The notes: generated by a model from the sequence alone, not told the origin. A stretch of DNA of 32,000 nucleotides from Desulfurivibrio alkaliphilus AHT 2 (GCF_000092205.1 NC_014216.1:1337742-1369741); one strand, 5' to 3'. Positions 5,694-22,461 are shown, counted from the first letter of the stretch. Made by a program: numbers and translations.

Positions 5694-5713
5694 CACTTGG
5701 CGGCTTCTTTGCT

Positions 5714-5864
5714 GTAACCGTTCACCAGGGGTGCTAACCTGCCGGTTTAACGGGCTGTAATCGTTCAGCAGTGCCGCAGGTTCGGGCAAGCAGCCAGGCG
5801 CAGCGTACCCCCTGTACGTAAGCCTGGCTGATCGCCCGAAGATGCGGTGCTGCTGTACGATTAC
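5714..5864 (-). mobile_element. MITE copy 1 (151 bp foldback element, GTAA termini)
   Basis: Starts GTAACCGTTCACCAGG and ends GCTGTACGATTAC. Flanked by the 8-bp repeats TCTTTGCT (5706-5713) and CCTTTGCT (5865-5872). Homologous over its full length to six other copies. Confidence 0.85.
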
Positions 5865-6904
5865 CCTTTGCTCTCCAGCCAGCACAGGGGATCCTCGGCC
5901 AGGTAATCGCCGGTCACCTGATAAGCATGACCCCGGCAGCCGTAACAGGTGGTGTTGTGGTCGCAACCGGAGCATTTGCCTTTGATGGTGTGGCGAATAT
6001 CGCGTAACTCTCGAATCACCCGGCTGCCGGCCAGAATCTCGGCCAACGGCTGCTGGCGGATATTACCCACCCCCACATTGACCCCGGGGCAAGGATTGAC
6101 GTCGCCCAAGGAGGTAACGGTGCAGGAATATTCATGCCGCGAACACTGGGAAGCGGCCAGCGGCGGCCGGGGCGACCAGTTGAAGCCGAATTCTTCCCGG
6201 TCGATGCCGGCCAGTTGCTCAAACAGGCTCCTGATCTCGGGGCCGGAGACCTCCAGCTCGGGGTGCTCTACCGCCCGGCCTTGCAGAGTCATCATCTCCA
6301 CGTAGGGAATAATGCCCCGGCACCGCGCCCAGCGCCAGATATCGGGCAGCTCGGCATAGTTATGGCGACAGACGATGGTCTGCACCCCCAGCAGCAGATC
6401 GTCGGCGGGATAACCGACTTCCTGCAGGGCCGCCAACCCCTGTTCAATGGCGGCGAAGGTTCCCGGTCGACCGGCCAGCAGATCCTGCACCTCGGGCTGC
6501 AGGCTGTTTCTCTTTACCACCACCGCCACTTGGCGCTCTTGCAGGCGGCGAGCAATTTCCGGGGTAATCAGGGTACCGTTGGTGAAGATATCCGCCTGCA
6601 GGCCCTTGCCGCGGATATAGTCGATCACCGTAAAGATCTCCGGGTAGAGCAGCGGCTCCCCTCCGCCCAGGACGATGATCTTGCGGGCTCCCAGCTCCGC
6701 CGCCTGGTCGATGACCTGCTTTATTTCCGCCAGAGACAACTCATCGGCCAGCGGCAACCCGGAACCGGCATAGCAATATATGCAGCGGATATTACAGGCC
6801 AGCGACAGCTCCAGCTCCAGGGAAAGCAAACCGTTTCTCGCCCTGGTATCGGCAATCTCCTGAGGGGTGAACTCCTGCCCCCAGTACTCACTTAAACATG
6901 ACAT
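5861..6904 (-). CDS. Radical SAM protein with C-terminal SPASM domain
   Basis: The rSAM cluster motif is LSLACNIRCIYCYAG (CX3CX2C). The Cys-rich C-terminus CSRHEYSCTVTSLGDVNPCPG...KCSGCDHNTTCYGCRGHAY is SPASM/twitch-like. The TAA stop (5863-5861) lies inside the MITE terminus. Confidence 0.85.
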   Translation of the reverse strand: MSCLSEYWGQEFTPQEIADTRARNGLLSLELELSLACNIRCIYCYAGSGLPLADELSLAEIKQVIDQAAELGARKIIVLGGGEPLLYPEIFTVIDYIRGKGLQADIFTNGTLITPEIARRLQERQVAVVVKRNSLQPEVQDLLAGRPGTFAAIEQGLAALQEVGYPADDLLLGVQTIVCRHNYAELPDIWRWARCRGIIPYVEMMTLQGRAVEHPELEVSGPEIRSLFEQLAGIDREEFGFNWSPRPPLAASQCSRHEYSCTVTSLGDVNPCPGVNVGVGNIRQQPLAEILAGSRVIRELRDIRHTIKGKCSGCDHNTTCYGCRGHAYQVTGDYLAEDPLCWLESKG

Positions 6905-6927
6905 TATCTAGCATCCTCGCGCAATTC

Positions 6928-7078
6928 ATAACCGTTCACCAGAGGCACCAGCCTACCGGTTTAACGGGCCGTAATCGTTCAGCAGTGCCGCAGGTTCGGG
7001 TAAGCAGCCAGGTGCAGCGTACCCACTGTACGTAAGCCTGGCTGATCGCCCGAAGATGCGGTGCTGCTGAACGATTAC
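6928..7078 (-). mobile_element. MITE copy 2 (151 bp)
   Basis: Starts ATAACCGTTCACCAG (terminal G>A) and ends GCTGAACGATTAC. Flanking 8-mers are CGCAATTC (6920-6927) and CGCAAATC (7079-7086). Confidence 0.85.
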
Positions 7079-8403
7079 CGCAAATCGAAAAATCTCTTCA
7101 CCTTACGGCTCCCTCCTCCTTCAATGACCGACCTTACTTCCGCCGGCGGCCTGACAACAACTTCCGGTATCACCCGTAAACGGGCTTGTAACATATCCCT
7201 GATCTTTTCCAAATTGATTTCTGCCCCCCCGACCACCACCCTGATTTCATCGGAAAGATCAAAAGAAGCCCTTACTTCCAGGTAAAAATCCCGTACCCCC
7301 GGCACCTCCTCCAGGAGCTGAAAAATGGTTTCGGGATACAAGGTGGTGCCCTTGTATTTCAAGCGCTGGGCCAGGCGCCCTTCAATGGGTCCCAGCCGCG
7401 GGGTCTGCCAGCCGCAGGCACAGGGTTCATAGTGCAGGCGGGCGACATCGCCGGTTCGGAAACGAACCAGGGGAAAGCCCTCCACCCCCAGGGGGGTCAC
7501 CACCACTTCCCCGGGAGAACCGGGGGCGACCGGCTGACCATGTTCGCCGATAATTTCCACCACCATCAGTTCCGGATGCACATGCCCGCCGCAGCCGGCG
7601 CTGCACTCACCGAAAGCGGTGGCCATCTCGGTGGCACCGTAGGAGGCATGCAGCCGCGCCCTCCAGGCCTCCTGCAGCAGTTCCCCCAGGGGAGTAAGGG
7701 TCATATCGGGCCGGCGCACCGGCTCACCGATGGTCACCAGCGAGGTGACTCCGCACCTGGCCGGGCTTATCCCGTTTTTTTTACCCCAGCGCGCCAGCTT
7801 AAGCAGAAAGGAAGGGACTCCCACCAGCACCATGGGCCTCAGATTGTCGATCAGTTCCCAATGCTGCTGCGGCTTGCCCGGGCCACCTCGAATGGCGGTG
7901 GCCCCCAGCCGCACCAGACCCGAGTAGTAAGCCAGGCCGGCGATGAAACAGCGGTCCAGGGTTACAAAGAGCAACGCCCGGTGGCCGGGCCGCACCCCGG
8001 CGCTGTAAAAGGCCATCATCTCGTTGTAGGCCAGCCGCTCCAGATCGTGGGCGGTGTAGGGGATGGTCACCGGCCGACCGGTGGTCCCCGAGGTTAGGGC
8101 CAGATCCACCGGCGGCACATCGCTGGCCGGCAGAAAAGCCGCCGGTTGCCGGTCGATATCCGCCCGCGCGGTCAAGGGCAGGGCCTGCAGATCGGCCAGA
8201 GTGGCGAGTTCCCCGGGGGAAAAGCCGGCCGCGGCAAACAGCTCCCGGTAGTACGGCGCCTGTTGCGCCAAGGCCAAGTGGTGACGCAGAAGCGGCAGCT
8301 GCACCTCCTGGCGCTCGGCGGACGGAGCCTGGCGCAGCCGCAGCCCCTGTTCCAGGGTTAAGCTTTTGGTTACCGCTTGCATCCGGATATCACCTTGCCA
8401 CAT
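7075..8403 (-). CDS. PaaK-like adenylate-forming enzyme (phenylacetate-CoA ligase / F390 synthetase family)
   Basis: LALTSGTTGRPVTIPYT gives the (S/T)GTTG P-loop, followed by YGATEMA and GDVAR...GRL blocks. An alternative start is the ATG at 8382, preceded by AAGGTGA. The TAA stop (7077-7075) is supplied by the MITE terminus. Confidence 0.8.
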   Translation of the reverse strand: MWQGDIRMQAVTKSLTLEQGLRLRQAPSAERQEVQLPLLRHHLALAQQAPYYRELFAAAGFSPGELATLADLQALPLTARADIDRQPAAFLPASDVPPVDLALTSGTTGRPVTIPYTAHDLERLAYNEMMAFYSAGVRPGHRALLFVTLDRCFIAGLAYYSGLVRLGATAIRGGPGKPQQHWELIDNLRPMVLVGVPSFLLKLARWGKKNGISPARCGVTSLVTIGEPVRRPDMTLTPLGELLQEAWRARLHASYGATEMATAFGECSAGCGGHVHPELMVVEIIGEHGQPVAPGSPGEVVVTPLGVEGFPLVRFRTGDVARLHYEPCACGWQTPRLGPIEGRLAQRLKYKGTTLYPETIFQLLEEVPGVRDFYLEVRASFDLSDEIRVVVGGAEINLEKIRDMLQARLRVIPEVVVRPPAEVRSVIEGGGSRKVKRFFDLR

Positions 8404-8411
8404 AACAAATT

Positions 8412-9158
8412 TTATTCACCGTAGCCTTGCTGCAAAGCCTTGCTGATCGACCGGCGGGCGGCGTCCCGCAACTCCTCCGGGGTGGGCGCTCCCTGCTCCG
8501 GTGCCGGCCAGGCCACCGGTGGCAGAATGACCACCCTGATCCGGCCGGGGTTGAACAGGAGGCTGCCCGGCGGCAGCACCCGCCCCGAGCCCAAAATACA
8601 AACCGGCACCACCGGGCGGCCGGCGGCCACGGCCAGTTGAAAAGCCCCTTTCCGAAAACGCCTCATCCGGCCGGTCCGGGAGCGGTGCCCCTCCGGCCAG
8701 ACGATGATCGAGCTGCCGAGCCCCAGTAGCAGTCGCCCTTGCCTTTCCACCTCGGACCAGCCGGTGCGGGAGTCAATATAGCCGGCTCTTCGCATGATTT
8801 GGCCGTAAAAAGGCATTTTAAACGGCCAGCTGGTAACAAAGGCGTTCTCCACCGGCAACAGGCCAAAGAGATAAGGATCCATGGCCGAGTTGTGATTGGC
8901 CACAAAAATTGCCGGCAAAGGCAACTCCCCGGCCCGGTTTTCCAGGGTAACCCGAACGGCCGGCCGGCCCAGCCAAAGCAGAAACCCGCCGAACTGGCGG
9001 ACGGCAAGGCGCAAAGTCCGCCCGGGGGATTTTTCCCCCACCACCATTGCGCCGGCCATAATCAGCGGCAGGGCAAGCCCGAACAGGATGGTAACCAGGA
9101 CAAACAGCGGCCAGAAATAAAGATTGACCCATAACTTCTCAAGTCTGCTGACCACCAT
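8412..9158 (-). CDS. PlsC-family 1-acyl-sn-glycerol-3-phosphate acyltransferase-like protein
   Basis: N-terminal TM helices, an HX4D motif (FVANHNSAMDP) and a VWPEGHRSRTG (PEG-x-R) block. Confidence 0.8.
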   Translation of the reverse strand: MVVSRLEKLWVNLYFWPLFVLVTILFGLALPLIMAGAMVVGEKSPGRTLRLAVRQFGGFLLWLGRPAVRVTLENRAGELPLPAIFVANHNSAMDPYLFGLLPVENAFVTSWPFKMPFYGQIMRRAGYIDSRTGWSEVERQGRLLLGLGSSIIVWPEGHRSRTGRMRRFRKGAFQLAVAAGRPVVPVCILGSGRVLPPGSLLFNPGRIRVVILPPVAWPAPEQGAPTPEELRDAARRSISKALQQGYGE

Positions 9159-9408
9159 GGACCCCTTTCAACCTGATCAGGAGTTCAAAAAGGTCGTTCA
9201 TGGTACGTACCGCCTGCAAACTTTCTTTGTCGGTCAGCTTCATGCCAAAGGTTTTTTCCAGGACCACCACCATGTCGACCGCATCCAGGCTATCCAGCCC
9301 CAAATCGTCAAACAGGGTTGCCTCGGGCTTCATCGCTTCCGGGTCCAGCTCAAACTCTTCAGCCAGGGTCTCTACTACCTTGCGGCGCAACTCGTCATCG
9401 GTCATCAT
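9139..9408 (-). CDS. Acyl carrier protein
   Basis: 89 aa and acidic. The phosphopantetheine site motif is DLGLDSLDAVDMVVVLE. ATGA overlap with the upstream KS stop. Confidence 0.85.
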   Translation of the reverse strand: MMTDDELRRKVVETLAEEFELDPEAMKPEATLFDDLGLDSLDAVDMVVVLEKTFGMKLTDKESLQAVRTMNDLFELLIRLKGVHGGQQT

Positions 9409-12178: not shown

Positions 12179-12181
12179 TAT

Positions 12182-13444
12182 TCATAAAGCCTGCACCACC
12201 AAGCTGGCGTTAACCCCGCCGAACCCCGCCGCGTTGCACAGGATAAAGCGCGGCGACTGGGCCAGCGTTGCCGTGGGTATCCGCAGCTTGGCTGCCTCCG
12301 GGGCCGGCTCGACCAGGTTGGGATGCGGGCCGACAAAGCCCGCCCGGCTCATCAACAGGGCATAGATAACCTGGGAGGCCCCGGCCATCCAGAACTCGTG
12401 CCCGGTCAGGGCCTTGGTCGCCGCCACCAGCGGCCCCGGTTTTCCCCGGTCGAGCTCGAAAAGCCGGCACAGGGCCTGGGCCTCCTTCTCATCGCCCACC
12501 GGGGTGGAGGTGGCGTGGGCCATCACCAGGTCAATTTGCTCCGGCTCCAGCCCGGCATCGGCAATGGCCCCGGCCATGGCCCGTTCCATCCCCTCGCCGC
12601 TGGGAACGGAAATATGATAGCCGTCGGCGGCAAAATCATAACCGCAGATTTCCGCCAGAATCTCCGCCCCCCGGGCCCGGGCCGTCTCTTCGGCCTCCAG
12701 CAGCAGCATGGCCGCCCCTCCGCCGGGCACCAGACCGTCCCGGCCCTGATCGAAGGGGCGGGAGGCCTGGTGCGGGGCCTCTTCCCGCCGGGCAAAAGCG
12801 CCCACCGCATCGAAGCTGCACATGGACTGCCAGGAAATCTCCTGCCCGCCGCCGCAAAGCATACGGTCCTGCCGCCCTCCGGCGATCAACTCGGCGGCCT
12901 GACCGATGGCCATCGCGCCGCTGGCACAGGCACCGCTTACCGTCCAGGAAGCGCCGCGCAACTGCAGCTTGGTGCACAGGTTCAAGGTTACAGTGCTGGT
13001 GAGCAGGCGAAAGATATGGCCGCTGCCGATCCCGCGGGTCTCCCCGGCCGCCTTCAACATCTCGCACTGCTCAACCCCGGTGACCACCGACGAGTCATTG
13101 CCGAAGAGAAAGCCGGTGCGGGTCTCCCCGGCCAACTCGGCCGCCTCCACCCCGGCCTGTTCCAGGGCCTGGCACAGGGCGTCCCAGGTCCACCAGCCAA
13201 ATTCCGGCAGCTTGCTGCGATATTTGCGATCCAGGGGATAGCGCGGCACAAAGCCGTCAATCACCCCGCTCAGGCCGCTCTGGAAACCCAGTTCCTTGCG
13301 TTCCGGCAACAGGGCAATCCCGGGGGTGCCGGCCTTAAGGGCCGCCTGCACCTCACGGCGCGACAACCCCAGGCAGGAGACAATCCCCATTCCGGTCACC
13401 ACCACCCGCCGTTGTTTAACCGGCCGCCCGTGCATCGATATCAC
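12182..13444 (-). CDS. Beta-ketoacyl-ACP synthase (KAS I/II-like), catalytically complete
   Basis: RVVVTGMG, then TVSGACASGAMAIG, MAHATSTPVGD and TKALTGHEFWMAGA (Cys-His-His). GTG start at 13444 (GTGA overlap with the upstream stop), or ATG at 13435. Confidence 0.9.
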   Translation of the reverse strand: MISMHGRPVKQRRVVVTGMGIVSCLGLSRREVQAALKAGTPGIALLPERKELGFQSGLSGVIDGFVPRYPLDRKYRSKLPEFGWWTWDALCQALEQAGVEAAELAGETRTGFLFGNDSSVVTGVEQCEMLKAAGETRGIGSGHIFRLLTSTVTLNLCTKLQLRGASWTVSGACASGAMAIGQAAELIAGGRQDRMLCGGGQEISWQSMCSFDAVGAFARREEAPHQASRPFDQGRDGLVPGGGAAMLLLEAEETARARGAEILAEICGYDFAADGYHISVPSGEGMERAMAGAIADAGLEPEQIDLVMAHATSTPVGDEKEAQALCRLFELDRGKPGPLVAATKALTGHEFWMAGASQVIYALLMSRAGFVGPHPNLVEPAPEAAKLRIPTATLAQSPRFILCNAAGFGGVNASLVVQAL

Positions 13445-14868
13445 CCTTCAATCCGCTGATTGGAGCGGGCAAAACGCAGAAAACTGGAGAGATTGCCCAT
13501 AAACCGCCACCAGCTGTGGGGGGATTGCCAAAGCATGGCCAGGTAGCCCAGCCACACCCGGGGCCGCATGAAATGACTGCGGTAAAATTCCAGGAAGAGC
13601 TCCTCCAGCCGTTGCCGGGTCATCCCCTTGGTCACAAAAACAAAATTCATGCAGTCCATCTTCCGGTAATCTTCCTCAAACTCGCCCAGTTCGTGAATTT
13701 TTTCATAAATGGGGGAGCCGGGAAAAGGGGTGAATTTGGCCAGGTTGAAATCATCGATGGGCAAGGAAAAGACATAGCGCATGCTGCGTCGCACACTCTC
13801 CTCGGTTTCTCCCGGCAGGCCCAGCATCAGCAGCCCTTTAACCCTGATCCCGGCCCGGTGAATATCGTGGATCACTTTGGCCAGCAGGTTAAGATCGGCA
13901 TTCTGCCGGTGCTGGGCCAGCAGATCGGGATCGCCGGTTTCAATACCCAGGCTGATCATCCAGCAACCGGCTTTTTTCATTAAGGCCAGCAGCTCCGGGT
14001 CCACATGTTCGGCCCGGACCGCGCAGTTGAAGGTCATGTTAAGCGGTTCTTCGATCAGGCGCCGGCACAGCTCCACCACCCGGCCCCGGTGGAAGGTGAA
14101 CTGATCGTCGTAGAAATTAAGGTGGCGAACCCCCCAGCGCTGCCGCAGATGCTGCATGTGCCGGTAAACATAGTCGGCGGAGTTGTATTTAAAGCTGCGC
14201 CGGAAGACCGAGCGGTCGCAGTAGCTGCAGGAGTAGGGACAGCCCCGGCTGGACAGGCAACTGGCGTTGGGATGGGTGGGGTAGTTGAAGATCGGCAATT
14301 GGTATGCCTCGGGGTAGCCACGCAACTTTTCGTAGGCCGGCAGGGGCAGGTCGTCCAGTTCCACCCCCCGGCCCTGCAGGCCGGTAAAATGTACCCCGGA
14401 GTCGGTGCGAAAAACCAGCCCCTCGATACTTGCCAAAGGGGCTCCCTGCAGCAGTTGCGCCAGCGGTAACTCGCCCTCCCCCACCACGGCGCAATCAACT
14501 TCCGGATACTGCTGCAGGATCTTCTCTTTCATGGCCGAAACGTGAACCCCGCCCAACACCGCCTTGATTTCCGGCCTGGCCCCCTTGACCATGCGCACGA
14601 TCCGCACCGCGTCAAGAAAGCCGTTGGTGGTGCAGGTCAGGCCGATCCAATCCGGCCGATGCTCATCGATGTAGGCCATAATACGGGCATCGGAATCCAG
14701 ATGGGCAAAACAGTCGATGATGGCGGTACGGCAACCCTGCTGATCCAGGTAGGCGGCGATACTGCACAGCCCCAGCGGCGGCATCAGGTTGGCCAGTCGC
14801 GCGATATCGGTCTTGCTGCCATCGGCGGTGTAGCCCAGAGGGTGAATCAGAAGAATGTGCTTGGCCAT
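13441..14868 (-). CDS. B12-binding-domain radical SAM protein (class B)
   Basis: ILLIHPLGY...MPPLGLCSIAAYLDQQGC forms the B12-like domain, and SSRGCPYSCSYCD is the CX3CX2C motif. The track start 14901 lies inside a MITE; I prefer the ATG at 14868 (MAKHILLIHP), preceded by GGAAGG. Confidence 0.85.
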   Translation of the reverse strand: MAKHILLIHPLGYTADGSKTDIARLANLMPPLGLCSIAAYLDQQGCRTAIIDCFAHLDSDARIMAYIDEHRPDWIGLTCTTNGFLDAVRIVRMVKGARPEIKAVLGGVHVSAMKEKILQQYPEVDCAVVGEGELPLAQLLQGAPLASIEGLVFRTDSGVHFTGLQGRGVELDDLPLPAYEKLRGYPEAYQLPIFNYPTHPNASCLSSRGCPYSCSYCDRSVFRRSFKYNSADYVYRHMQHLRQRWGVRHLNFYDDQFTFHRGRVVELCRRLIEEPLNMTFNCAVRAEHVDPELLALMKKAGCWMISLGIETGDPDLLAQHRQNADLNLLAKVIHDIHRAGIRVKGLLMLGLPGETEESVRRSMRYVFSLPIDDFNLAKFTPFPGSPIYEKIHELGEFEEDYRKMDCMNFVFVTKGMTRQRLEELFLEFYRSHFMRPRVWLGYLAMLWQSPHSWWRFMGNLSSFLRFARSNQRIEG

Positions 14869-14883
14869 CACTGCCTTCCAGTC

Positions 14884-15033
14884 GTAAACGTTCAGCAGCA
14901 CCGCATCTTCGGGCCAGCAGCCAGGCTTGAGTACCCGGTGTACGCGGCGCCTGGCTGCTGGCCCGAAGCTACGGCACTGCTGAACGTTTACGGCCCGTTA
15001 AATCAACAGGTTAACACTCTGACAAACGGTTAC
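14884..15033 (+). mobile_element. MITE copy 3 (150 bp, most diverged tail)
   Basis: Starts GTAAACGTTCAGCAG and ends GACAAACGGTTAC. The flanking 8-mers TTCCAGTC and CCCCATTC are only partly alike (5/8), consistent with an older insertion. It sits 15 nt upstream of the operon start codon. Confidence 0.8.
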
Positions 15034-15167
15034 CCCCATTCAGGTTTCTCCGACGAGTGCCTTACCATTTCATTGCTGCAATGAGCGGCAAAACTAGCAT
15101 ATCCCACGCCTGGGCACAAGGATTTGGTAAGTTTTATTAAATTTAGCCCAACTTGCTGAAATTTGCC

Positions 15168-15195
15168 GTGACCAATATTACGCTTGTGTTATAAT
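15168..15195 (+). promoter_or_regulatory. Candidate sigma70 promoter with extended -10 for the 15316 operon
   Basis: GTGACC (15168-15173), 16-bp spacer, TGtTATAAT (15187-15195). This is a consensus match only. Confidence 0.4.
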
Positions 15196-15315
15196 GGCCG
15201 CCGCCGCATCGGGGCAAAGTTTAACTCGGCCGTGGAGGGATCATTTTGCCTTGTCTTCAGCGCCGGCCGGTAACGCCCCCCCGGAATTTCGGCCTAACTC
15301 TATGAAAACGTCGAC

Positions 15316-16611
15316 ATGCAAATTCTGCTGATCAATCCACCCAATTGCGGGCGCAGTATCCCCGAGGAACGCTACGGCATCACCTCGGTCCGTCAGATCT
15401 TCCGAGGCGAGCCCCTGGCGCTGGAAGAACTGGCCGGCAACCTGACCGCCCACGATGTCCGCATCCTGGACCTGAAGGCCGAGCCCGACGGCCTCGACCG
15501 GGCCCTGAACCAAGGTCTACCGGACCTGGTGGGCCTTACCGGGGTAACCTGCGAGGCCAACACCGTTCGGCGACTGGCCGGGGAGTTTAAAGCGGCAGGA
15601 GTGAAAAACGTGGTGGTGGGCGGCATTCACGCCAGCAACGACCCGGCCTTTTTCAACCATGAGGAAATCGATTACATCTGTATCGGCCTGGGCAAACTCT
15701 CTTTCCGGGAACTGGTGGAAGCCCTGGAGCAGGGTCGGCAACCGGCGGATATTCCCGGCATAGCCAAGACCTCCCCGGGCGGGCAACTGCAATGGCTTGA
15801 GCGGGACTACCGGGAGGACGACCTGGTCTCCCACCGTCCGCCAGCCTACCAACTGGTCGCCTCTTACCGGGACCACTACCGGCTGGAAAGGCTGAAGGTA
15901 ACCATGGGCTTTGTCGTTTCCGCCGCCGGGTGCCCCCACCGCTGCTCGTTCTGCTGCATCAAGGGCCAATGCGGCGGCCGCTACCTGACCCGGCCCGAGC
16001 AGGAGGTGATCCGCGACATCGAACTGCTGGCCGACATTCCGGTAATCCGGCTGATTGACGCCAACACCTTCGGCAACCCCGAACAGGCCCGCAGGCTGGG
16101 CGAGGCTATCCGCGCAGCAAGGCTCAACAAACAATTTCTGGCCGATGTCCGCTCCGATACGGTGGTCAATCATCCGGAGCTGATGCAACTGTGGCGGGAA
16201 GCGGGATTGAGGGCGGTGATCATCGGCTTTGAAGAACTGGATGATCGCAGGCTTACGGCCATGAACAAGGCCAACCGGGCGGCAATCAACCGGGAAGCGG
16301 TGGGAGTGCTCCAGGAACTGGGAATCACCATTGTCGGCGATTTCATCGTTTCTCCCGGCTACCACGAGGAAGATTTCCAGCGCCTAAGCGATTACCTGGC
16401 CGCCAGCCGGATCGACTTGCCCATCATCACCGTGCTCACGCCCCTGCCCGGCACCGCCTACCATCGCCAGCAGCGCAACGAGATCATCAACCACGATCTC
16501 GACTATTACACCCTGACCAACGCCGTCACCCCCACCAGGCTGGCGGAAGAAGAATTTTACCGGCTCTATGCGGAACTGGTCCGCAACAGCCATCAACAGG
16601 CCAAACTGTGA
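15316..16611 (+). CDS. B12-binding-domain radical SAM protein (class B)
   Basis: MQILLINPP...DLVGLTGVTCEANTVRRLAGEFKAAGVKNVVVGGIH forms the B12-like domain. AAGCPHRCSFC is the CX3CX2C motif. Confidence 0.85.
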   Translation: MQILLINPPNCGRSIPEERYGITSVRQIFRGEPLALEELAGNLTAHDVRILDLKAEPDGLDRALNQGLPDLVGLTGVTCEANTVRRLAGEFKAAGVKNVVVGGIHASNDPAFFNHEEIDYICIGLGKLSFRELVEALEQGRQPADIPGIAKTSPGGQLQWLERDYREDDLVSHRPPAYQLVASYRDHYRLERLKVTMGFVVSAAGCPHRCSFCCIKGQCGGRYLTRPEQEVIRDIELLADIPVIRLIDANTFGNPEQARRLGEAIRAARLNKQFLADVRSDTVVNHPELMQLWREAGLRAVIIGFEELDDRRLTAMNKANRAAINREAVGVLQELGITIVGDFIVSPGYHEEDFQRLSDYLAASRIDLPIITVLTPLPGTAYHRQQRNEIINHDLDYYTLTNAVTPTRLAEEEFYRLYAELVRNSHQQAKL

Positions 16612-16618
16612 ACCAATG

Positions 16619-16768
16619 GTAATCGTTCAGCAGCACCGCACCTTCGGGCGATCAGCCAGGCTTGAGTACCAGTGTACGCGGCGCCTGGCTGCTTGCCCGA
16701 ATCTGCGGCACTGCTGAACGATTACGGCCCGTTAAACCTGTAAGTTAGTACCCCTGATGAACGGTTAC
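16619..16768 (+). mobile_element. MITE copy 4 (150 bp)
   Basis: Perfect 8-bp duplication AACCAATG at 16611-16618 and 16769-16776. The second copy contains the ATG of the downstream gene. Confidence 0.9.
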
Positions 16769-16773
16769 AACCA

Positions 16774-17925
16774 ATGAACGTCTTTATCACCGATCTTGCC
16801 ACTTTTCTTCCCGGCCCCCCGATCAGCAACCAGCAGCTTGACGACTACCTGCTTGGCGCCGACCGTATCTCGACCAAAACCAGGAAGATCATTCTACAGA
16901 ACAACGGCATCAGCACCCGCCACTATGCCCTGGAGCCGGGCACCGGCCGGCTTACCCACAGCAACCGGGAGTTGACCGCCGAAGCCGTACGCGCCCTTTG
17001 CGCCCAGGGCAGATGCCGCCTGGACCAGATCGCCTGCCTCTCCTGCGGTACCGCTTCCCCGGACCAGTTGATGCCGGGCCATGCCTCCATGGTCCACGGC
17101 GAGCTGGGGGCAGCGCCGTGCGAGATCAACACCGCCAACGGGATTTGTCTTTCCGGTATCATGGCCATGAAGTACGGCGCCATGGCGGTGGCCCTGGGGC
17201 TGGCGGAAAACGCGGTGGCCACCGGCTCCGACCTCTCTTCCAGCTTTTTGCGCCCCTCGTTTCTAAAGCCGCCGCCGAACCCGGAAGCGGCAACCGGCAC
17301 CCCACGCCATCCGGCCTTCTCTTTTGAGGCCGATTTTCTGCGCTGGATGCTGTCCGACGGCGCCGGGGCGATGCTGCTGGAAAAACAGCCGGCCGGCGAC
17401 GGCATCAGCCTGCGGATTGACTGGCTGGAAATAGTCTCCCAGGCCCACCACCGGGAAACCTGCATGTACGCCGGGGGGGTAAAGGAAGAAGACGGCAGCA
17501 TCAGAGGGTGGCGGCAGTACGACCATATCGAAGAGGCCCTGGCCCAGGGGTCTTTTGCCGTCAAGCAGGACGCCCGGCTGCTCAACCGGGCGGTGATCCA
17601 AGCCCTGATCGAAGAAAGCCTGCCCCCACTGCTGGCCAAACACGATCTGCAACCCGAACAGGTTGACTGGTTTTTACCCCACTATTCTTCGGAATACTTC
17701 CGAATGCCGCTGCATGACCAGCTGGCGGCCATCGACTTCCCGATCCCTTACGAAAAATGGTTTACCAACCTGAAGACCAAAGGGAACACCGGAGCGGCTT
17801 CATTCTATATCATGCTGGCCGAACTGTTTGCATCCGGCCGCTTGCAGCGGGGGGAAAAGATCTTCTGCTTCATCCCCGAAAGCGGCCGCTTTGCGGTGGG
17901 CTACATCTTGCTTACCGTGGTATAA
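16774..17925 (+). CDS. FabH-like beta-ketoacyl-ACP synthase III family protein
   Basis: Thiolase fold with a candidate nucleophile at TANGICLSGIMAM, then LPHYSSEYF and KGNTGAASFYIML (Cys-His-Asn-like pattern). Confidence 0.75.
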   Translation: MNVFITDLATFLPGPPISNQQLDDYLLGADRISTKTRKIILQNNGISTRHYALEPGTGRLTHSNRELTAEAVRALCAQGRCRLDQIACLSCGTASPDQLMPGHASMVHGELGAAPCEINTANGICLSGIMAMKYGAMAVALGLAENAVATGSDLSSSFLRPSFLKPPPNPEAATGTPRHPAFSFEADFLRWMLSDGAGAMLLEKQPAGDGISLRIDWLEIVSQAHHRETCMYAGGVKEEDGSIRGWRQYDHIEEALAQGSFAVKQDARLLNRAVIQALIEESLPPLLAKHDLQPEQVDWFLPHYSSEYFRMPLHDQLAAIDFPIPYEKWFTNLKTKGNTGAASFYIMLAELFASGRLQRGEKIFCFIPESGRFAVGYILLTVV

Positions 17926-17928
17926 GCC

Positions 17929-18079
17929 GTAATCGTTCAGCAGCACCGCACCTTCGGGCGATCAGCCAGGCTTGAGTACCCGGTGTACGCGGCGCCTGGC
18001 TGCTTACCCGAATCTGCGGCACTGCTGAACGATTACGGCCCGTTAGACCGGTAAGTTAGTACCCCTGGTGAACGGTTAC
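17929..18079 (+). mobile_element. MITE copy 5 (151 bp)
   Basis: Flanking 8-mers TATAAGCC (17921-17928, includes the TAA stop of the upstream gene) and TATAAGCT (18080-18087). About 96% identical to copy 4. Confidence 0.9.
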
Positions 18080-18091
18080 TATAAGCTTTGG

Positions 18092-18370
18092 CTACAGGGT
18101 GCGGTGTTGGCGGATGAAGGCGGCCAACGACGTTAGCGAGGCCATGATCCGCTGGCCGCTCTCAACGGATTCAATCCGCACCCCGTAGCGATTCTGCACC
18201 GCCACTACGATCTCCACCGCATCCAGGGAGTCGATCTCAAGGGGCGAGTCCGGCCCGATCAAGGGCTGGTCCATAATTGCCGCCACCTCCAACTCCCTGG
18301 CCGGCAACCGGCAGGTTTCAACAATAAGGGGCAGCAGCTCCTCGGCCAGCGCCCGATCCTGACTTTCCAT
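18092..18370 (-). CDS. Acyl carrier protein-like protein (second ACP)
   Basis: [19 protein letters not shown] gives the DSL phosphopantetheine motif. The track start 18394 is TTG; I prefer the ATG at 18370, preceded by GGAGAGAGG. Confidence 0.75.
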
Positions 18371-18402
18371 AAACCTCTCTCCCAATACAGACAAAATTTG
18401 CC

Positions 18403-18553
18403 GTAAGCGAACAGCCGCACCGCATCTTCGGGCGATCAGCCAGGCTTACGTACAGGGGGTACGCTGCGCCTGGCTGCTTACCCGAACCTACGGCACGGCT
18501 GTTCGCTTACGGCCCGTTAGACCGGCAGATCAGTACCCCTGGTGAACGGTTAC
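18403..18553 (+). mobile_element. MITE copy 6 (151 bp, GTAAGCG subfamily)
   Basis: Perfect 8-bp duplication AATTTGCC at 18395-18402 and 18554-18561. Termini are GTAAGCGAACAGCCG and CTGGTGAACGGTTAC. Confidence 0.9.
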
Positions 18554-18603
18554 AATTTGCCAAATCGCTGCAACAGCCACCCCGGCTTTTACAACGGGCG
18601 GTT

Positions 18604-19908
18604 TCATTCACGGCAAGCAGTCAACCGCCAGGCCACCAGCAGGTTTATCAGGCCGAACAACAGCAGCCAGAACAGCCAGATGGCGGCTCCAGCCAGGCCA
18701 TGCCCCCGGACCAGAAGCTCATGAAAGGCGGTCAGCCCCCAGTTCAGGGGTGACGCCACGGCAAGCTGCTGCATAAATTCGGGCATGGCATGGACCGGCA
18801 CCATGATCCCGCCCAAAGCGGCCGCCAGAACGATGGAGATGGAACCAAACATGGTAACCTGTTCGTAACTGCTGCAGGCACTGCCCAGCATCAAGCCGTA
18901 ACCGCAGGCGGCCAGACTGACCACCAGCACCACCAGGCCGACCTCCCAGAACACCCCGGCGGCGGTGAACGCCGGCAAGCCCAGCAGGGGAAAAAGCCGG
19001 TTGCCGATGAGGTAAATCAAGGCAAACTGGAGCAAACCCACCAGCAAATAGGCCAGCATTTTGCCACCCAAAAGGCTTACCACCGCCAGAGGCATACTGC
19101 GAAAACGCAGCCATACTCCAGAGCGCCGCTCCCAAAACAGGCCGCCGCCCAGCGGCAGCACGGTAAAAAACATGCCGAACAAAGCCCAGGCGGGAACATT
19201 CTGCTGCACCACCCCCGGCCGGCGGCGATCATCGCCGCTTTTCGCCTGCTCCCGGAGCCGGAGCAGCTCTTCCGGCAGGGTTTCAACCCCGAAGGTTTCC
19301 TGCCGCAGAAATTCTCCCGGTATTCCCAGCTGTTCCAGGCGGCTGCGAATGGTCTCTACCAGCAACTCCAACTTCCACTCCAGTTCAACCCGGGCCATGG
19401 CCAGGCGCACCACGGTGGCAAGCTCCTGGCGAAATCCCGGCAGCAGGGCCGGGTCAAAAAAGATTTGCAGTTCCAGCGCGGGGGCAATCCCCTCTTCCTG
19501 CCGGCCGTCATGATCTTCAGCCTCCCGGTCGGAGGCGGCCGCAGCCAGTCGCTGCAAACGGTGCTGCAAATCCGCATCGATTCCCGCCGGCAGGATCAGC
19601 AGGCCGCTGTACTCCCCGGCGGTCACAGCGGCTTGAGCCTCTGCCACCCGCTCCTCCGGCCAGACCACCAGCTCGAGCCCCCGGTGCTCCCGGAGCAAAA
19701 CCTGCAACTCCGGGCCCAGTTCTCCCTGATCCCGGTCAATAAAAATCATGGTGCCGGCCCGCTCACCGGTAAGCTCCATGACATTCTGCTGCACCAGGGT
19801 GATCACCAGCACCAGGGCCGCCGGCAGCAGAAAAAGGCTTAACAGGCCGGCATGATCCCGCAAGAGCAGCAAGAGCTCTTTCCATGTCACCGTCAAGATC
19901 CGGCTCAT
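18604..19908 (-). CDS. ABC-2 type transporter permease
   Basis: An N-terminal TM helix, a ~200-aa extracytoplasmic loop, then 5 hydrophobic helices. It lies immediately downstream of an ABC ATPase. Confidence 0.75.
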   Translation of the reverse strand: MSRILTVTWKELLLLLRDHAGLLSLFLLPAALVLVITLVQQNVMELTGERAGTMIFIDRDQGELGPELQVLLREHRGLELVVWPEERVAEAQAAVTAGEYSGLLILPAGIDADLQHRLQRLAAAASDREAEDHDGRQEEGIAPALELQIFFDPALLPGFRQELATVVRLAMARVELEWKLELLVETIRSRLEQLGIPGEFLRQETFGVETLPEELLRLREQAKSGDDRRRPGVVQQNVPAWALFGMFFTVLPLGGGLFWERRSGVWLRFRSMPLAVVSLLGGKMLAYLLVGLLQFALIYLIGNRLFPLLGLPAFTAAGVFWEVGLVVLVVSLAACGYGLMLGSACSSYEQVTMFGSISIVLAAALGGIMVPVHAMPEFMQQLAVASPLNWGLTAFHELLVRGHGLAGAAIWLFWLLLFGLINLLVAWRLTACRE

Positions 19909-19912
19909 AGCC

Positions 19913-20707
19913 TCAATCCCGCAACTCCTTGCCGGTCAGGGAGAAAAAAAGCTCGCCCAGGCCGGCAAAGCCACCGCTTTGTAACAACTCGGCGGGACTG
20001 CCGCAGACCACTACCCGCCCCTCATCGATGATCGCCACCTGCCGGCACAACTGTTCCGCCTCTTCCAGATAGTGGGTGGCGTAAACAATGGTCACCCCCT
20101 GCCCGGCCAAGGCGGCAAGCTGCTCGTGGATCGACTGCCGGGACTGGGCGTCGATGCCCACCGTGGGCTCATCCAGGCAAAGGATCTGCGGCTCGTGCAA
20201 CAGGCCCACCGCCAGGTTCAGCCGCCGTTTCATGCCGCCGGAATAGGTCGCCACCCGCTGCCCGGCCCGGGTCTCAAGCCCGGCCAGGCGCAGGCCGTGG
20301 GCAACCCGTTGTTGCAGCCGTTGCCCCCGCAGGCCGTACAGGCGGCCGAAGAAAAGCAGGTTTTCCCGACCGCTCAAACGGTCATAAAGGGCCAGATCCT
20401 GGGGCACAAAGCCCAGCCTTTGCTTGGCCGACGGCGAAGCCGGGCCGCCCTCCCACCCCGAAAAGGAGATGGCTCCACCATCCGGTCGGGCCAGCCCGCA
20501 CAACAGGGCCAGGGTGGTGGATTTTCCGGCCCCGTTGGGCCCCAGCAGCCCGAAGATCCCTCCCCGCGGGATACTCAAGGTAAGCTGGTCGACGGCCGGC
20601 CGCCGCTGGCCCGGATATGTTTTCCGCAGCCCCGCAAGCTCAATGGCAAAAGGCGCTGCGGCCGCTGCAACCGCCCGGGGCGTCTGTTCTCCCTGCCCCC
20701 GGCTCAT
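19913..20707 (-). CDS. ABC transporter ATP-binding protein
   Basis: Walker A GLLGPNGAGKSTT, signature YSGGMKRRL, Walker B ILCLDEPTVGID. I prefer the ATG at 20707 (ATGA overlap with the upstream stop) to the track start 20767. Confidence 0.9.
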   Translation of the reverse strand: MSRGQGEQTPRAVAAAAAPFAIELAGLRKTYPGQRRPAVDQLTLSIPRGGIFGLLGPNGAGKSTTLALLCGLARPDGGAISFSGWEGGPASPSAKQRLGFVPQDLALYDRLSGRENLLFFGRLYGLRGQRLQQRVAHGLRLAGLETRAGQRVATYSGGMKRRLNLAVGLLHEPQILCLDEPTVGIDAQSRQSIHEQLAALAGQGVTIVYATHYLEEAEQLCRQVAIIDEGRVVVCGSPAELLQSGGFAGLGELFFSLTGKELRD

Positions 20708-21726
20708 GGCATGGTTCCCAACATAAACCGCAACCGACGAAAGACCTGCTCCTCGAGAGCGGCACATTGCTCCAGGCCGGCGGCCAGGGCCTGATAGTCG
20801 TCACCGGCGCCGGGGCGACCCTTACATATCCGGGCTGCCATCACGGCAAAATCACGCCACCGGTCACCGGCGGCGGTCAATTCCCGCCCAACCGCCGCCA
20901 ATGGTTCGTGGCCCAAGAGTTCACCGGCTTCTCGCAAAAAATCGGCATAAAGAAAACGGAAACCTCCCCCTCCGGTGCCGATCTCCTCCTGCATCCGCAC
21001 CACATGCCCCAAGTGCAGGGCGGCCCGCTGCGGCCCCAAACGCCGGGGCCAGCGTTTTAAGCGGCGGGCCAGAAAACGGATTCCCCGGACCCCGGTCAGG
21101 GGGAAGGGCTGCAGCATGCCCCGCACCGCCACCCTTATTCCAGCCATGATAGCAGGCCGGAAATCGGGCTTTTCCGGGCGGAATTCAAGCCCGTACATCC
21201 TCCCCTTGGGAGCCAGGGCGCCGGCGGCAAAACGGGCCCGCTGCAAATCCTGAGCAGGACAGCTGACAGGGCCGGGAAACACCGGGTCGCTGATCAGGTA
21301 GTCATCACCCCGCTTACCATACACCACCAGGTTGTGACCGTTGAAATGGAACCGGTAGGCTTTGGGAAAATAGGGCAGCCAGAAGACCCCGGTCTGCAAC
21401 CCCACCGGTATCCCCCGGGCCAGCAGGTCGTCCAGGGCTTTCATGGCCCGCTCGGGATTACGGAAGCTCTGCTCCCACACCCGGATGCCCAGGTTGCCGG
21501 CCAGGCGTTTGATAATCCGGCCGCTGGCCACTCGGTAGGTCACCAGCGGCAGACCGTTGAGCCTGATAAACGGGAAGTAGCCGAAGAAAATACCGGCCCC
21601 GACCCCAAAGGCCATGGGCTCGGAAAGGGGTATGCCGCCATGACTTACCAGGTTGGCCGCCACCCCGCTTTCACAGTGCGCCGCCTGCCTATGTTGAAAA
21701 TCAAGCTCCAGATTCACCGGCACCAT
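20704..21726 (-). CDS. BtrH N-terminal-domain / DUF4872-like protein (papain-fold, ACP-dependent acyl/aminoacyl transferase-like)
   Basis: The N-terminus FQHRQAAHCESGVAANLVSHGGIPLSEPMAFGVGAGIFFGYF matches my memory of the BtrH_N block, with a His-Cys-Glu-Ser nucleophile region. Confidence 0.6.
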   Translation of the reverse strand: MVPVNLELDFQHRQAAHCESGVAANLVSHGGIPLSEPMAFGVGAGIFFGYFPFIRLNGLPLVTYRVASGRIIKRLAGNLGIRVWEQSFRNPERAMKALDDLLARGIPVGLQTGVFWLPYFPKAYRFHFNGHNLVVYGKRGDDYLISDPVFPGPVSCPAQDLQRARFAAGALAPKGRMYGLEFRPEKPDFRPAIMAGIRVAVRGMLQPFPLTGVRGIRFLARRLKRWPRRLGPQRAALHLGHVVRMQEEIGTGGGGFRFLYADFLREAGELLGHEPLAAVGRELTAAGDRWRDFAVMAARICKGRPGAGDDYQALAAGLEQCAALEEQVFRRLRFMLGTMP

Positions 21727-21742
21727 TCTCGATCAATTGCTC

Positions 21743-21893
21743 GTATCCGTTCACCAGGGGTACTAAACTGCCGGCCTAACGGGCCGTAAGCGAACAGCCG
21801 TGCCGCAGGTTCGGGTAAGCAGCCAGGCGCAGCGTACCCCCTGTACGTAAGCCTGGCTGATCGCCCGAAGATGCGGTGCGGCTGTTCGCTTAC
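21743..21893 (-). mobile_element. MITE copy 7 (151 bp, GTAAGCG subfamily)
   Basis: Perfect 8-bp duplication AATTGCTC at 21735-21742 and 21894-21901. It differs from copy 6 at 5 of 151 positions and is in the opposite orientation. Confidence 0.9.
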
Positions 21894-22342
21894 AATTGCT
21901 CAGGTGCCGCTGCACCGCCCAAGTTGCACGATTGCTCATAGAGCGCAGCACGCAACACGCCCCGGCGCAAATCATCCTCCGACACCTTAAAAAGCTCGGC
22001 ATAACGGCGCAGCATGGCGGAAGATAAGCGCCGGAAGCCCGCCGCGCGCAGATGCCACCTGACCCGCCAGACGGAAAAACCCATATACTTGCCCAGCAGC
22101 CGAGGGGTCATCTGGTTGACCACCATATAGTAATGGATAGGGCTGACCTTGCCACCCTCTACCAGGCGGCGGGCCTCAGCTACCTCTGCCCCCAGGGCCT
22201 GCCAGGCTTGCTCGTTAACCACATCCACGATGCCGGTATCAGCGCTGCTGATACGGCAACGGCCACCGTTGGCCGCCTTGGCGTACTGCACCAACGGCAA
22301 ACCGCCGGTAACCCCGGAATGATTACTTTTTTCCTGTATCAT
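21890..22342 (-). CDS. Hypothetical protein, possible XRE-like helix-turn-helix protein
   Basis: SPIHYYMVVNQMTPRLLGKYMGFSVWRVRWHLRAAGFRRLSSAMLRRYAELFKVSEDDL resembles an HTH followed by the usual 'A-x-x-F-x-V-S-x-x-D-L' helix. I take the ATG at 22342 (MIQEK). The TAA stop (21892-21890) is supplied by the MITE terminus. Confidence 0.4.
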   Translation of the reverse strand: MIQEKSNHSGVTGGLPLVQYAKAANGGRCRISSADTGIVDVVNEQAWQALGAEVAEARRLVEGGKVSPIHYYMVVNQMTPRLLGKYMGFSVWRVRWHLRAAGFRRLSSAMLRRYAELFKVSEDDLRRGVLRAALYEQSCNLGGAAAPEQL

Positions 22343-22461
22343 AGCAGCCCCAAGATAGCCGAAATCAGTCACCAAAACAAGGGCGCAGGCCCGGCAGCAA
22401 GGCAAAGTCAGTTGCCTGTACACTGAGGGCAGGTTTTGCGGCATCCACCCGGGCACAAATC

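Follow-up and report, generated by a model that had tools for sequence, protein, structure and literature searches.

In a lipid-like biosynthetic cluster of Desulfurivibrio alkaliphilus, seven copies of a non-coding element of about 151 bp lie at the junctions between genes. It is very probably a non-autonomous MITE, moved in trans by a single-ORF (ISBst12-like, DUF6444 + DDE_Tnp_IS66) DDE transposase of the IS66 family. Its mobilization by such a transposase in Desulfurivibrio itself is inferred.

Position and anatomy of the seven copies

The repeat finder and a MAFFT alignment gave exactly seven copies of 150-151 bp in the window (the whole 32,000-nucleotide stretch of DNA analysed), at the coordinates and on the strands given in a preliminary description of this DNA. 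The copies, their neighbours, their target duplications and the two modules of c5, taken as the family example, are as follows.

c1, 5714..5864, - strand: MITE between a radical-SAM/SPASM gene and a PagL-like gene, sense to both; target duplication 5706-5713 TCTTTGCT / 5865-5872 CCTTTGCT, 7/8
c2, 6928..7078, - strand: MITE between an AMP-binding gene and a radical-SAM/SPASM gene, sense; target duplication 6920-6927 CGCAATTC / 7079-7086 CGCAAATC, 7/8
c3, 14884..15033, + strand: MITE in the divergent intergenic region of two B12-radical-SAM genes
c4, 16619..16768, + strand: MITE between a B12-radical-SAM gene (stop 16609-16611) and a DarB/StlD-like ketosynthase gene (ATG 16774), sense; target duplication AACCAATG, 16611-16618 and 16769-16776, perfect
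c5, 17929..18079, + strand: MITE just 3' of the ketosynthase gene stop; target duplication 17921-17928 TATAAGCC / 18080-18087 TATAAGCT, 7/8
c5 foldback module, 17929..18036, + strand: 108-nt imperfect hairpin; the terminal IR (GTAATCGTTCAGCAG...) pairs with an internal inverted copy (...CTGCTGAACGATTAC)
c5 tail module, 18037..18079, + strand: 43 nt; the terminus CCCCTGGTGAACGGTTAC is the outer right terminal IR, reverse complement GTAACCGTTCACCAGGGG
c6, 18403..18553, + strand: MITE between an ABC-2 permease gene and an acyl-carrier-protein gene, both on the - strand; target duplication AATTTGCC, 18395-18402 and 18554-18561, perfect
c7, 21743..21893, - strand: MITE between a 188-aa gene and a BtrH_N/DUF4872 gene, sense; target duplication AATTGCTC, 21735-21742 and 21894-21901, perfect

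Alignment of all seven copies agreed with the anatomy first proposed, that is, a GTAA start, a foldback and a 43-nt tail, and with the absence of coding capacity from this small, multi-copy element. The left end of every copy is GTAA(T/G/A)CG (7/7) and the foldback is a 108-nt imperfect hairpin with the 3' limit CG(A/C/T)TTAC, followed by the 43-nt tail with the terminus CTGGTGAACGGTTAC and the variants (C)TGGTGAACGG(T/A)TA(C/T). The reverse complement of the right end is GTAACCG, or GTATCCG or ATAACCG where it has decayed, and the end pair of the family is GTAATCGTTCAGC / GTAACCGTTCACC. The outer IRs match over about 15 nt, with 2-5 of the 15 positions differing between the foldback-end IR and the tail-end IR. 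Folding of the element gave -80.4 kcal/mol (z = -7.1) as RNA and -46.7 kcal/mol (z = -7.05) as DNA.

Pairwise identity of the seven copies ranged from 77% to 97%, the closest pairs being c6/c7 (97%), c4/c5 (96%) and c1/c2 (92%). The most diverged copy was c3 (77-86%), and its flanking 8-mers match at 5/8 only, with no clear target duplication. The right end of c2 has degenerated to GGTTAT. The outer stem of c6 has compensated changes (GTAAGCGAACAGCCG / CGGCTGTTCGCTTAC). Alone among the window copies, c6 is antisense to neighbours that are themselves co-directional. The sole match of the promoter and terminator scan near the copies was a weak stem at the edge of c6 with a T-run after it in the flanking DNA; it is probably due to chance.

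The GTAA terminus provides the stop codon of three upstream genes. The gene upstream of c1 (5861-6904, - strand) ends ...ESKG* with the TAA of the terminus as its stop, that upstream of c2 (7075-8403, - strand) stops inside the terminus, and that upstream of c7 (21890-22456, - strand) ends ...APEQL* in it. The c1 junction would have been a coupled TGATG before insertion, and without c7 the upstream gene would be about 10 codons longer and overlap the next start codon. At c4, the downstream start codon is contained in the second copy of AACCAATG. The copies account for false extensions of ORFs and unusual gene ends in the cluster.

Target site duplications and empty sites

Six window copies were said to carry 8-bp direct repeats, three perfect and three matching at 7/8, and this was found to be the case. 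We extended the comparison to 42 distinct full-length copies, made up of the window copies and copies from other genomes and metagenomes (at least five genomes and metagenomes); 24 had perfect duplications and seven matched at 7/8, so that 31/42 had duplications at 7/8 or better. When the 8-mer was shifted by 10 nt as a control, 1/42 reached this level, and the excess of duplications is far beyond chance. The duplicated 8-mers have 43% G+C against a background of 61%. Two further MITE families with similar ends also show 8-bp duplications.

The orthologous cluster of a close relative (L053), whose proteins are about 90% identical, is empty at the c4 site, with a single AAACAATG (read as TGAAACAATG, ...CTGTGAAACAATGAACG... 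and ...CAAACTGTGAAACAATGAACGTC...) where the window has AACCAATG-MITE-AACCAATG. The element is also missing from the c3 and c6 sites of L053, and a 68% ortholog cluster (L054) has zero copies throughout. These vacant sites show that the elements are insertions, and an ancestral conserved intergenic RNA was rejected on this ground. At the c5 position L053 holds a decayed copy with an internal deletion, and c5 is therefore an older insertion shared by descent. Of the four sites compared, three have no element in this relative of about 90% identity; the lineage has therefore gained several insertions in one operon system with its reading frames kept, which offers a small case study of the insertion tolerance of operons.

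If the copies were instead palindromic units of the REP/BIME type, multiplied by recombination or by a RAYT (HUH Y1) transposase, the 8-mers would be incidental. Such an origin would fit the long palindrome that dominates the element, its intergenic position and the existence of hairpin-only 108-nt derivatives, which are REP-like (intergenic, palindromic, no duplication). It is already largely refuted by the duplications in 31 full-length copies against one in the control and by the clean empty site in the ortholog, and we give it almost no credence. DDE_Tnp_IS66 ISs have identical ends, and the size of 151 bp far exceeds the 20-40 nt of REPs, which are RAYT-associated, whereas the present elements form an 8-bp-duplicating family with IS66 ends. 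The head is GTAA, versus the GTAG and CGTC heads of the REP superfamilies as summarized in PMC3733652.

Distribution of the family

The DNA retrieved for comparison contained 123 matches to the family, whose copies are abundant in metagenomes from soda lakes as well as in the genomes of Desulfurivibrio. When 185,579 species genomes were scanned, it was limited to Desulfurivibrio/Desulfobulbaceae genomes, and many matches lay at contig ends, as a multi-copy repeat predicts. Assemblies made independently from read sets of D. alkaliphilus break within the copies flanking the ketosynthase gene, and the copies explain why contigs are interrupted in Desulfurivibrio MAGs and in assemblies of short reads. 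A blastn search of 72,556 plasmids with the element returned only chance-level matches of 25 nt; the best was to unannotated DNA of a Sinorhizobium plasmid.

The density of copies in the window had been considered unusually high. This did not hold, because the figure for related contigs is about 0.13 extra copies per kb, and 4 copies lie within 6-11 kb in some of them. The seven copies are genuine, but as bacterial repeats they are of a rather common kind. The family does not seem to have been described previously, and a 2024 review of prokaryotic MITEs mentions no IS66-derived family.

Identity of the ends with those of IS66 family ISs

The right end of the MITE, GTAACCGTTCACCAGGGG, is identical at 18/18 positions to the termini of single-ORF ISs of 1.52-1.62 kb in L066, L074, L092, L090, L116 and L119. 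The ORFs of the L066/L074/L092 and L090/L116/L119 ISs match PF03050 DDE_Tnp_IS66 in Pfam at 1e-37 and 2.5e-40, and the ISs sharing the 18-mer also match DUF6444 and zf-IS66; the two lineages are only 35% identical to each other. The first 11-13 nt of the MITE terminus are common to the IS66-family ISs of L122, L123, L124, L125 and L129, and three complete relatives (L122, L123 and L129), from Nostoc, Chroococcidiopsis and a metagenome, have GTAACCGTTCA... ends and perfect 8-bp duplications. The duplication is CTAAAAAC in Nostoc p057_G, GTGAAAAC in Chroococcidiopsis pB and CATTATGC in L129. For seven insertions of metagenomic ISs with the exact 18-mer or a close variant the flanks were unmatched, and only L129 matches. 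The ends of ISCro1 are GTAACCGGCTC / GTAAGCGACTC.

The IRs of the IS66 family start with GTAAGCG and are flanked by an 8-bp direct repeat (PMC11946415). ISDge4, a single-ORF member of the ISBst12 group, has an 8-bp direct repeat and the TIR GTAACTGCTCAGCA (PMC12898284); this TIR is similar to the foldback end of the MITE, GTAATCGTTCAGCA. The single-ORF IS66 ISs compared (ISDge4, L066, L090, L129, Nostoc p057_G and Chroococcidiopsis pB) have GTAA(N)CG termini and 8-bp duplications like those of the MITE, and GTAACCGTTCA(CC) is common to those other than L066 and L090, which have the 18-mer. The MITE differs from them in its length of 151 bp, in having no transposase gene and in carrying a further, internal copy of the IR in inverted orientation, by which the 108-nt foldback is formed. 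A terminal foldback distal to the transposase is present in the L066-type IS and missing from the ISs of L090, Nostoc and Chroococcidiopsis, and is therefore not general to the group. Together with the duplications and the empty sites, the identity of the ends upholds the IS66-like reading of the preliminary description.

Three observations count against mobilization by an IS66-family transposase: none was detected in the Desulfurivibrio-type loci searched (see below), the flanks of the seven metagenomic insertions are unmatched, and the foldback-end IR is variable among subfamilies while the tail-end IR is constant, which is unusual if one IR-binding specificity is assumed.

Search for a parent transposase

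The window was said to contain no transposase, and Pfam searches of all major ORFs and tblastn searches with IS66 proteins gave none. Queries for tblastn were TnpA/B/C of ISCro1 and the transposases of L066 and L090, and they detected no IS66-family transposase in the window, in 45 Desulfurivibrio-type genome loci (about 265 kb) or in 31 MITE-bearing metagenome loci. A profile search of the transposase subgroup gave none named Desulfurivibrio among the best 120 of 6,488 homologues. In the Desulfurivibrio-type loci, every GTAA...TTAC pair that had a spacing of 60-4500 bp and whose IRs and flanks matched belonged to a MITE, and none to a full-length IS.

Two candidates for a parent were rejected. 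The 1.6-kb segment of L079, which has MITE-type ends, contains a 527-aa "ORF" that is the antisense of a response-regulator/HD gene. The hairpin-only copies are not left ends of full ISs, their neighbours being housekeeping genes (polA, hisD, leuB-like, UbiD and DUF1015).

Several IS families make 8-bp duplications, and the finding of no cognate transposase in the loci searched or among those best homologues would also fit a MITE moved by another of these families (e.g. ISL3, IS256, IS6 or IS1595), the likeness to IS66 ends being coincidental. We consider this very improbable in view of the 18/18 identity with DDE_Tnp_IS66 ISs of two such divergent lineages and of the 11-13 nt common to the MITE and four further IS66-family ISs. 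To our knowledge, GTAA termini occur in none of the ISL3, IS256, IS6 and IS1595 families.

In trans-mobilization by an IS66-family transposase, the enzyme would bind GTAA(N)CGTTCAGCAG, the outer terminus of the foldback, and GTAACCGTTCACCAGGGG, that of the tail, and would join both to a target cleaved with a stagger of 8 bp, giving the 8-bp duplications. The targets are relatively AT-rich 8-mers, and the copies lie between genes because such 8-mers are found mostly at stop/start junctions in this genome of 61% G+C. Copies inside operons probably survive because they are nearly harmless: a stop codon can be provided by the GTAA end and, in the sense orientation, the unstructured 43-nt tail would keep the large hairpin apart from the ribosome-binding site of the next gene.

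Conservation of the foldback

The foldback is structurally conserved. Among 31 distinct copies, 15 of 35 pairs showed compensatory changes and 97.6% of cells were paired, a result equalled by 0/500 shuffles, while only 29-40% of cells were paired when the partners were slid by 1-3 columns. All four Watson-Crick pairs were seen at position 5 and its partner. The outer stems of the c6/c7 subfamily, which has perfect duplications, are fully compensated, and the stems of about 12 hairpin-only copies (no tail, no duplication) are intact and compensated. Between co-directional genes, 11 copies were sense and 1 antisense (p = 0.006), a count that rests on crude gene calls.

These data are what would be expected if the 108-nt foldback of the MITE were also a selected functional module, which we regard as rather unlikely. 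It could be a stabilizing or processing hairpin in polycistronic mRNA, as in REP/BIME or Correia elements, and be retained by the host beyond the mobility of the element; this would account for the compensated hairpin-only copies and the sense bias inside operons. It could also be a DNA or ssDNA structure needed by the IS66-type transposition machinery, which would mean a structure-dependent end for a DDE family of poorly known mechanism. Either way, the element would in effect spread a structured signal to operon junctions. However, covariation can arise from selection for transposition on master copies, with no host function. Part of the hairpin has been lost from the c5 ortholog of L053, and at least that copy is therefore not maintained by the host. 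Stem mismatches counted as events (G-U at 6 and A-C at 9 pair positions) showed no clear strand asymmetry, and scans for consensus promoters and terminators gave no signals inside the elements. No family of Rfam 15 matched the whole window at gathering thresholds; a permissive search gave only sub-threshold, generic hairpin matches to miRNA precursor models (28 bits versus a gathering score of 77.5).

Comparison with other MITEs

Correia elements of Neisseria and MITEs of the ERIC/IRU type are likewise short and non-coding, form long hairpins when co-transcribed, lie at gene junctions and can bring signals to neighbouring genes. Correia elements have a TA duplication, 26-bp IRs and documented RNase III and IHF sites, whereas the present MITE has 8-bp duplications of varied sequence and outer IRs of about 15 nt. 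[quoted passage not shown] As outlined in PMC10969869, which cites Chen et al. 2008, Chunjie is 178-235 bp long, belongs to a family unrelated to ours and resembles the present MITE in its many full and partial intergenic copies.

The present MITE is a clean and abundant example of an element linked to the single-ORF ISs of the IS66 family, a branch that has been little studied. With one left end, two copies of the right end and strong covariation of its foldback, it would make a convenient natural substrate for determining which end features an IS66-type transposase reads.

Architecture of the repeat

The repeat finder and the alignments located 150-151-bp repeats at exactly the seven positions of the preliminary description:

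c1, 5714-5864 (-)
c2, 6928-7078 (-)
c3, 14884-15033 (+)
c4, 16619-16768 (+)
c5, 17929-18079 (+)
c6, 18403-18553 (+)
c7, 21743-21893 (-)

In the common orientation, every copy starts with GTAA(T/G/A)CG and opens a 108-nt imperfect hairpin with a CG(A/C/T)TTAC end, 3' of which is a 43-nt tail terminating in ...CCCCTGGTGAACGGTTAC. One 15-nt motif is present three times per element, as the left terminal inverted repeat (IR), as an internal inverted copy closing the hairpin and as the outer right terminal IR. A single copy had a folding energy of -80.4 kcal/mol (z = -7.1) when modelled as RNA and of -46.7 kcal/mol (z = -7.05) when modelled as DNA. The copies form three subfamilies: c1/c2 (92% identity), c4/c5 (96%, with c3 more distant) and c6/c7 (97%). 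The flanking 8-mers were as first listed, perfect for c4, c6 and c7 and matching at 7/8 for c1, c2 and c5; for c3, no convincing duplication was found.

Copies c5 and c6 (window 17929-18553) flank a small acyl-carrier-protein gene (~18092-18370, - strand) in direct orientation, a composite-transposon-like arrangement. The outer flanks of this unit, TATAAGCC and AATTTGCC, are mismatched and so give no indication of the whole unit having moved.

Mobility of the repeat

The repeat is mobile DNA. When a 31-nt core pattern was scanned against one genome per species (185,579 species), the family was found in Desulfurivibrio-type genomes only, namely a MAG labelled D. alkaliphilus SpSt-1224, D. dismutans AMeS2, Desulfobulbaceae CSSed10_361 and Desulfurivibrio sp. 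TamC05-19. Its matches often coincided with contig termini, a pattern expected for a repeat with multiple copies; likewise, public short-read D. alkaliphilus assemblies are interrupted within c4 and c5.

Pooling of the loci from the genome and metagenome scans gave 42 distinct full-length copies with both flanks. The 8-bp duplication was perfect in 24 of the 42 and matched at 7/8 in another seven, while three further copies had a perfect duplication after a one-base shift of the boundary; control 8-mers shifted by 10 nt matched at 7/8 or better in 1/42. The G+C content of the duplicated 8-mers was 43%, versus a background of 61%, which suggests that insertion prefers AT-rich targets, a preference that may account for the location of copies at gene junctions.

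Comparison of orthologous clusters showed a textbook empty site for c4: the cluster of locus L053 (~90% identical proteins) reads ...CAAACTGTGAAACAATGAACGTC... where the window reads AACCAATG-element-AACCAATG. Copies c3 and c6 are also absent from L053, while a decayed, internally deleted element occupies the c5 position, which makes c5 an older insertion. The more distant ortholog cluster L054 (68%) has no MITE copy.

Many tail-only or right-arm-plus-tail remnants were present in the OBJA01 metagenome (L067, L075, L086, L087, L101, L103, L106-L108, L113), and in some cases the deletion extends to the neighbouring start codon.

Relationship to the IS66 family

The hallmark of the IS66 family, IRs starting with GTAAGCG and direct repeats of 8 bp, is stated in PMC11946415. 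A single-ORF "ISBst12 group" has been described in the IS66 context, and its member ISDge4 has the terminal IRs GTGACTACTCAGCA / GTAACTGCTCAGCA and an 8-bp repeat (PMC12898284). Scanning a metagenome collection for the right-end 18-mer CCCCTGGTGAACGGTTAC returned 65 loci. About 30 of these were copies of the window MITE, mainly from one assembly (OBJA01), and seven were ends of 1.52-1.62-kb elements starting with GTAACCGTTCACCAGGGG and filled by a single ORF of 476-490 aa. These ORFs matched Pfam DDE_Tnp_IS66 (1e-37 and 2.5e-40), together with DUF6444 and zf-IS66, and belong to two transposase lineages with a mutual identity of 35%. In complete plasmids, their nearest annotated relatives carry the label "IS66 family transposase", and two of these have clean boundaries. 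These two and a metagenomic IS, whose transposase is 75% identical to that of the L090 IS, have the following ends:

Nostoc sp. C057 p057_G IS: IRs GTAACCGTTCACAGG / GTAATCGACCACAGGG, duplication CTAAAAAC
Chroococcidiopsis pB IS: IRs GTAACCGTTCAAGGGG / GTAATTGTTCACGGGG, duplication GTGAAAAC
L129 metagenomic IS (22.5-kb contig): IRs GTAACCGTTCACCGC..., duplication CATTATGC

As judged from sequence comparison, the MITE matches the single-ORF IS66-family branch in its ends and duplication length, and we assign it to that branch accordingly. The original reading as an IS66-type MITE thus held for the end motif, the duplication length and the ends common with real IS66-family ISs; the empty sites, the lack of coding capacity and the multiple copies of the repeat also agree with it.

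In our model, the autonomous parent would be an IS of ~1.5-1.7 kb encoding DUF6444 and DDE_Tnp_IS66, with ends of the GTAACCGTTCACC... and GTAATCGTTCAGC... type and 8-bp duplications. The ends are shared with IS66-family ISs elsewhere; no partner IS was found in the window, in ~265 kb of Desulfurivibrio-type genome loci or on the MITE-bearing metagenome contigs, and the best 120 of 6,488 transposase homologues included no Desulfurivibrio protein. The flanks of seven insertions of metagenomic ISs did not match, which could reflect a multi-copy IS being assembled chimerically or recombination among its copies.

Three copies of an IS66-family IS (L135 12-1651, L136 49-1688 and L137 31-1670) have the left terminal repeat, GTAACCGTTCACC, a second time, 48 nt beyond their normal left end, which recalls the two same-orientation ends of the MITE, 43 nt apart. 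At the transposase-distal end of the L066 and L092 ISs, the outermost 13 nt form a stem with an inverted copy at a subterminal position, GTAACCGTTCACC...GTGAACGGTTCAG (~-15 kcal/mol), a miniature version of the MITE foldback that the L090, Nostoc and Chroococcidiopsis ISs did not show.

Related elements and segments

The repeat is, by its sequence features, a bacterial MITE that belongs by family with the single-ORF IS66 elements. [quoted passage not shown] Our literature search found no paper on MITEs in Desulfurivibrio, and a 2024 review on MITEs in prokaryotes makes no reference to IS66.

A sibling family of ~133 bp was observed in the MAG CSSed10_361:

L040, 5706-5838 (-)
L032, 3228-3360 (+)
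L011, 6375-6508 (+)
L048, 1096-~1230 (+)

It has the same architecture, a 108-nt foldback plus a 24-nt tail ending in the third IR copy, but different IRs (GTAAGCGATCACAGGG / GTAAGTGATCACGGGG), which co-vary in all three IR copies. Two of its duplications are perfect (GTTTGCGG, AACCTCCG) and the third is TATCAATC/TATCAGTC. A second ~150-bp family, GTAAGCGTTCAGGG...CCAGAAACCAGGTTTTT...GCCCCTGGTGAACGGTTAC, was present on unrelated metagenome contigs (L060, L082, L085), with perfect 8-bp duplications (GTTGACGG, GCAGACGA). Since it has the exact right-end 18-mer of the window MITE, this IS66 subgroup appears to have given rise to several MITE families in different bacteria. A 1.6-kb segment (L079 8538-10148) carries a response-regulator/HD-domain gene between inverted MITE-type ends, GTAACCGTTCACCAGGGG on one side and the tail of a decayed copy on the other; its flanks do not match.

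Covariation of the foldback and hairpin-only copies

An alignment of 31 distinct copies, drawn from several genomes and with two diverged sibling subfamilies among them, gave a consensus hairpin of 35 pairs in which 97.6% of cells are paired. Compensatory double changes occurred in 15 of the 35 pairs (0/500 shuffles as good). Sliding the partners by 1-3 columns reduced pairing to 29-40%. At IR position 5 and its partner, T-A, G-C, A-T and C-G all occur. No covariation linked the outer right IR to the left end; c6/c7 combine the left end GTAAGCGAACAGCCG with an unchanged tail end, GTAACCGTTCACCAG.

About 12 copies are hairpin-only (108 nt, tail-less). All of them lack a duplication, and compensated stems are frequent among them. 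Those with GTAA...TTAC ends include:

L028, 5563-5670
L049, 6292-6399
L033, 2716-2822
L115, 5385-5492
L087, 1365-1475
L063, 1884-1991
L070, 5221-5331
L099, 4213-4319
L083, 7769-7877

Because their neighbours are ordinary genes, we rejected the possibility that they are ends of larger ISs. One hairpin-only copy exactly spans the gap between convergent leuB-like and DUF1015 genes and donates a stop codon.

We read the covariation as a constraint on foldback pairing; it may operate in transposition, on master copies, or on the mRNA. Against a role in the host, part of the hairpin is missing from the L053 counterpart of c5; a hand count of wobble-pair asymmetry in the stem was uninformative on this role. 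The strongly co-varying foldback, together with the immobile hairpin-only derivatives, is the most interesting residue of this analysis.

Host cluster, orientation and effects on genes

A cluster conserved among genomes of the Desulfobulbales type hosts the copies (window 707-22456). It codes for several B12-binding radical-SAM enzymes, two ketosynthases, a DarB/StlD-like KAS III, an acyl carrier protein, a flavin amine-oxidase-like protein, a SPASM radical-SAM enzyme, an acyltransferase, an AMP-ligase, a GT2-DUF2062 protein, a PagL-like protein, an ABC-2 exporter and a BtrH_N/DUF4872 protein, and looks like an unusual lipid or polyketide-like pathway. The ketosynthase at 16774-17925 is identical to ADH85837.1 / WP_013163366.1 (Desulfurivibrio alkaliphilus). 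The remainder of the window contains dnaB and housekeeping genes, and the ORF domain search and tblastn found no transposase in the window, as had been noted.

All seven copies are at gene boundaries, as first described. For c1, c2 and c7, the TAA of the G-TAA terminus is the present stop codon of the upstream gene; read across the duplication, these insertions cost the upstream genes 4-10 codons at the C-terminal end and disrupted junctions that had been overlapping or coupled (TGATG, for example). The duplicated 8-mer of c4, AACCAATG, contains the downstream start codon. Mechanical ORF calls at 5091-5975 (-), 13441-14901 (-) and 14542-15084 (+) traverse MITE copies, so their starts are over-extended, and the true ones lie downstream of the elements. 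For the PagL-like gene, the start is probably the ATG of a TGATG junction ~17 nt downstream of c1 (near 5693-5695), and comparison with the conserved start in L053 places that of the radical-SAM gene probably at ~14866.

Crude GC3-based gene calls around all copies gave 11 sense versus 1 antisense copies between two co-directional genes (p = 0.006), and manual inspection of the window added c6 as a second antisense case. Stop-codon donation cannot explain this bias, since G-TAA is present at both termini. The bias may arise because in the sense orientation the unstructured tail parts the hairpin from the ribosome-binding site of the next gene, which the hairpin would abut in the antisense orientation.

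The observation and interpretation of the preliminary description held up apart from two points: no parent element was found in the loci searched, and the "unusually high density" was not supported by comparison. Seven copies in 32 kb put the window at 0.22 per kb. MITE-bearing metagenome contigs had 0.13 additional copies per kb, and L099, L109 and L079 are among those with four copies or fragments in 6-11 kb. The density was lower in MAG loci (0.04 copies per kb), but the element itself fragments MAG assemblies.

Between c3 and the downstream B12-radical-SAM gene, a promoter-like GTGACC-16-TATAAT with an extended TG was observed at 15168-15195 (+), and the sequence around it is conserved in L053. 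Just past the cluster, at 22603-23361 (-), a 252-aa ORF has an AP2 DNA-binding domain (1e-11); AP2 domains are frequent companions of mobile or phage-derived genes.
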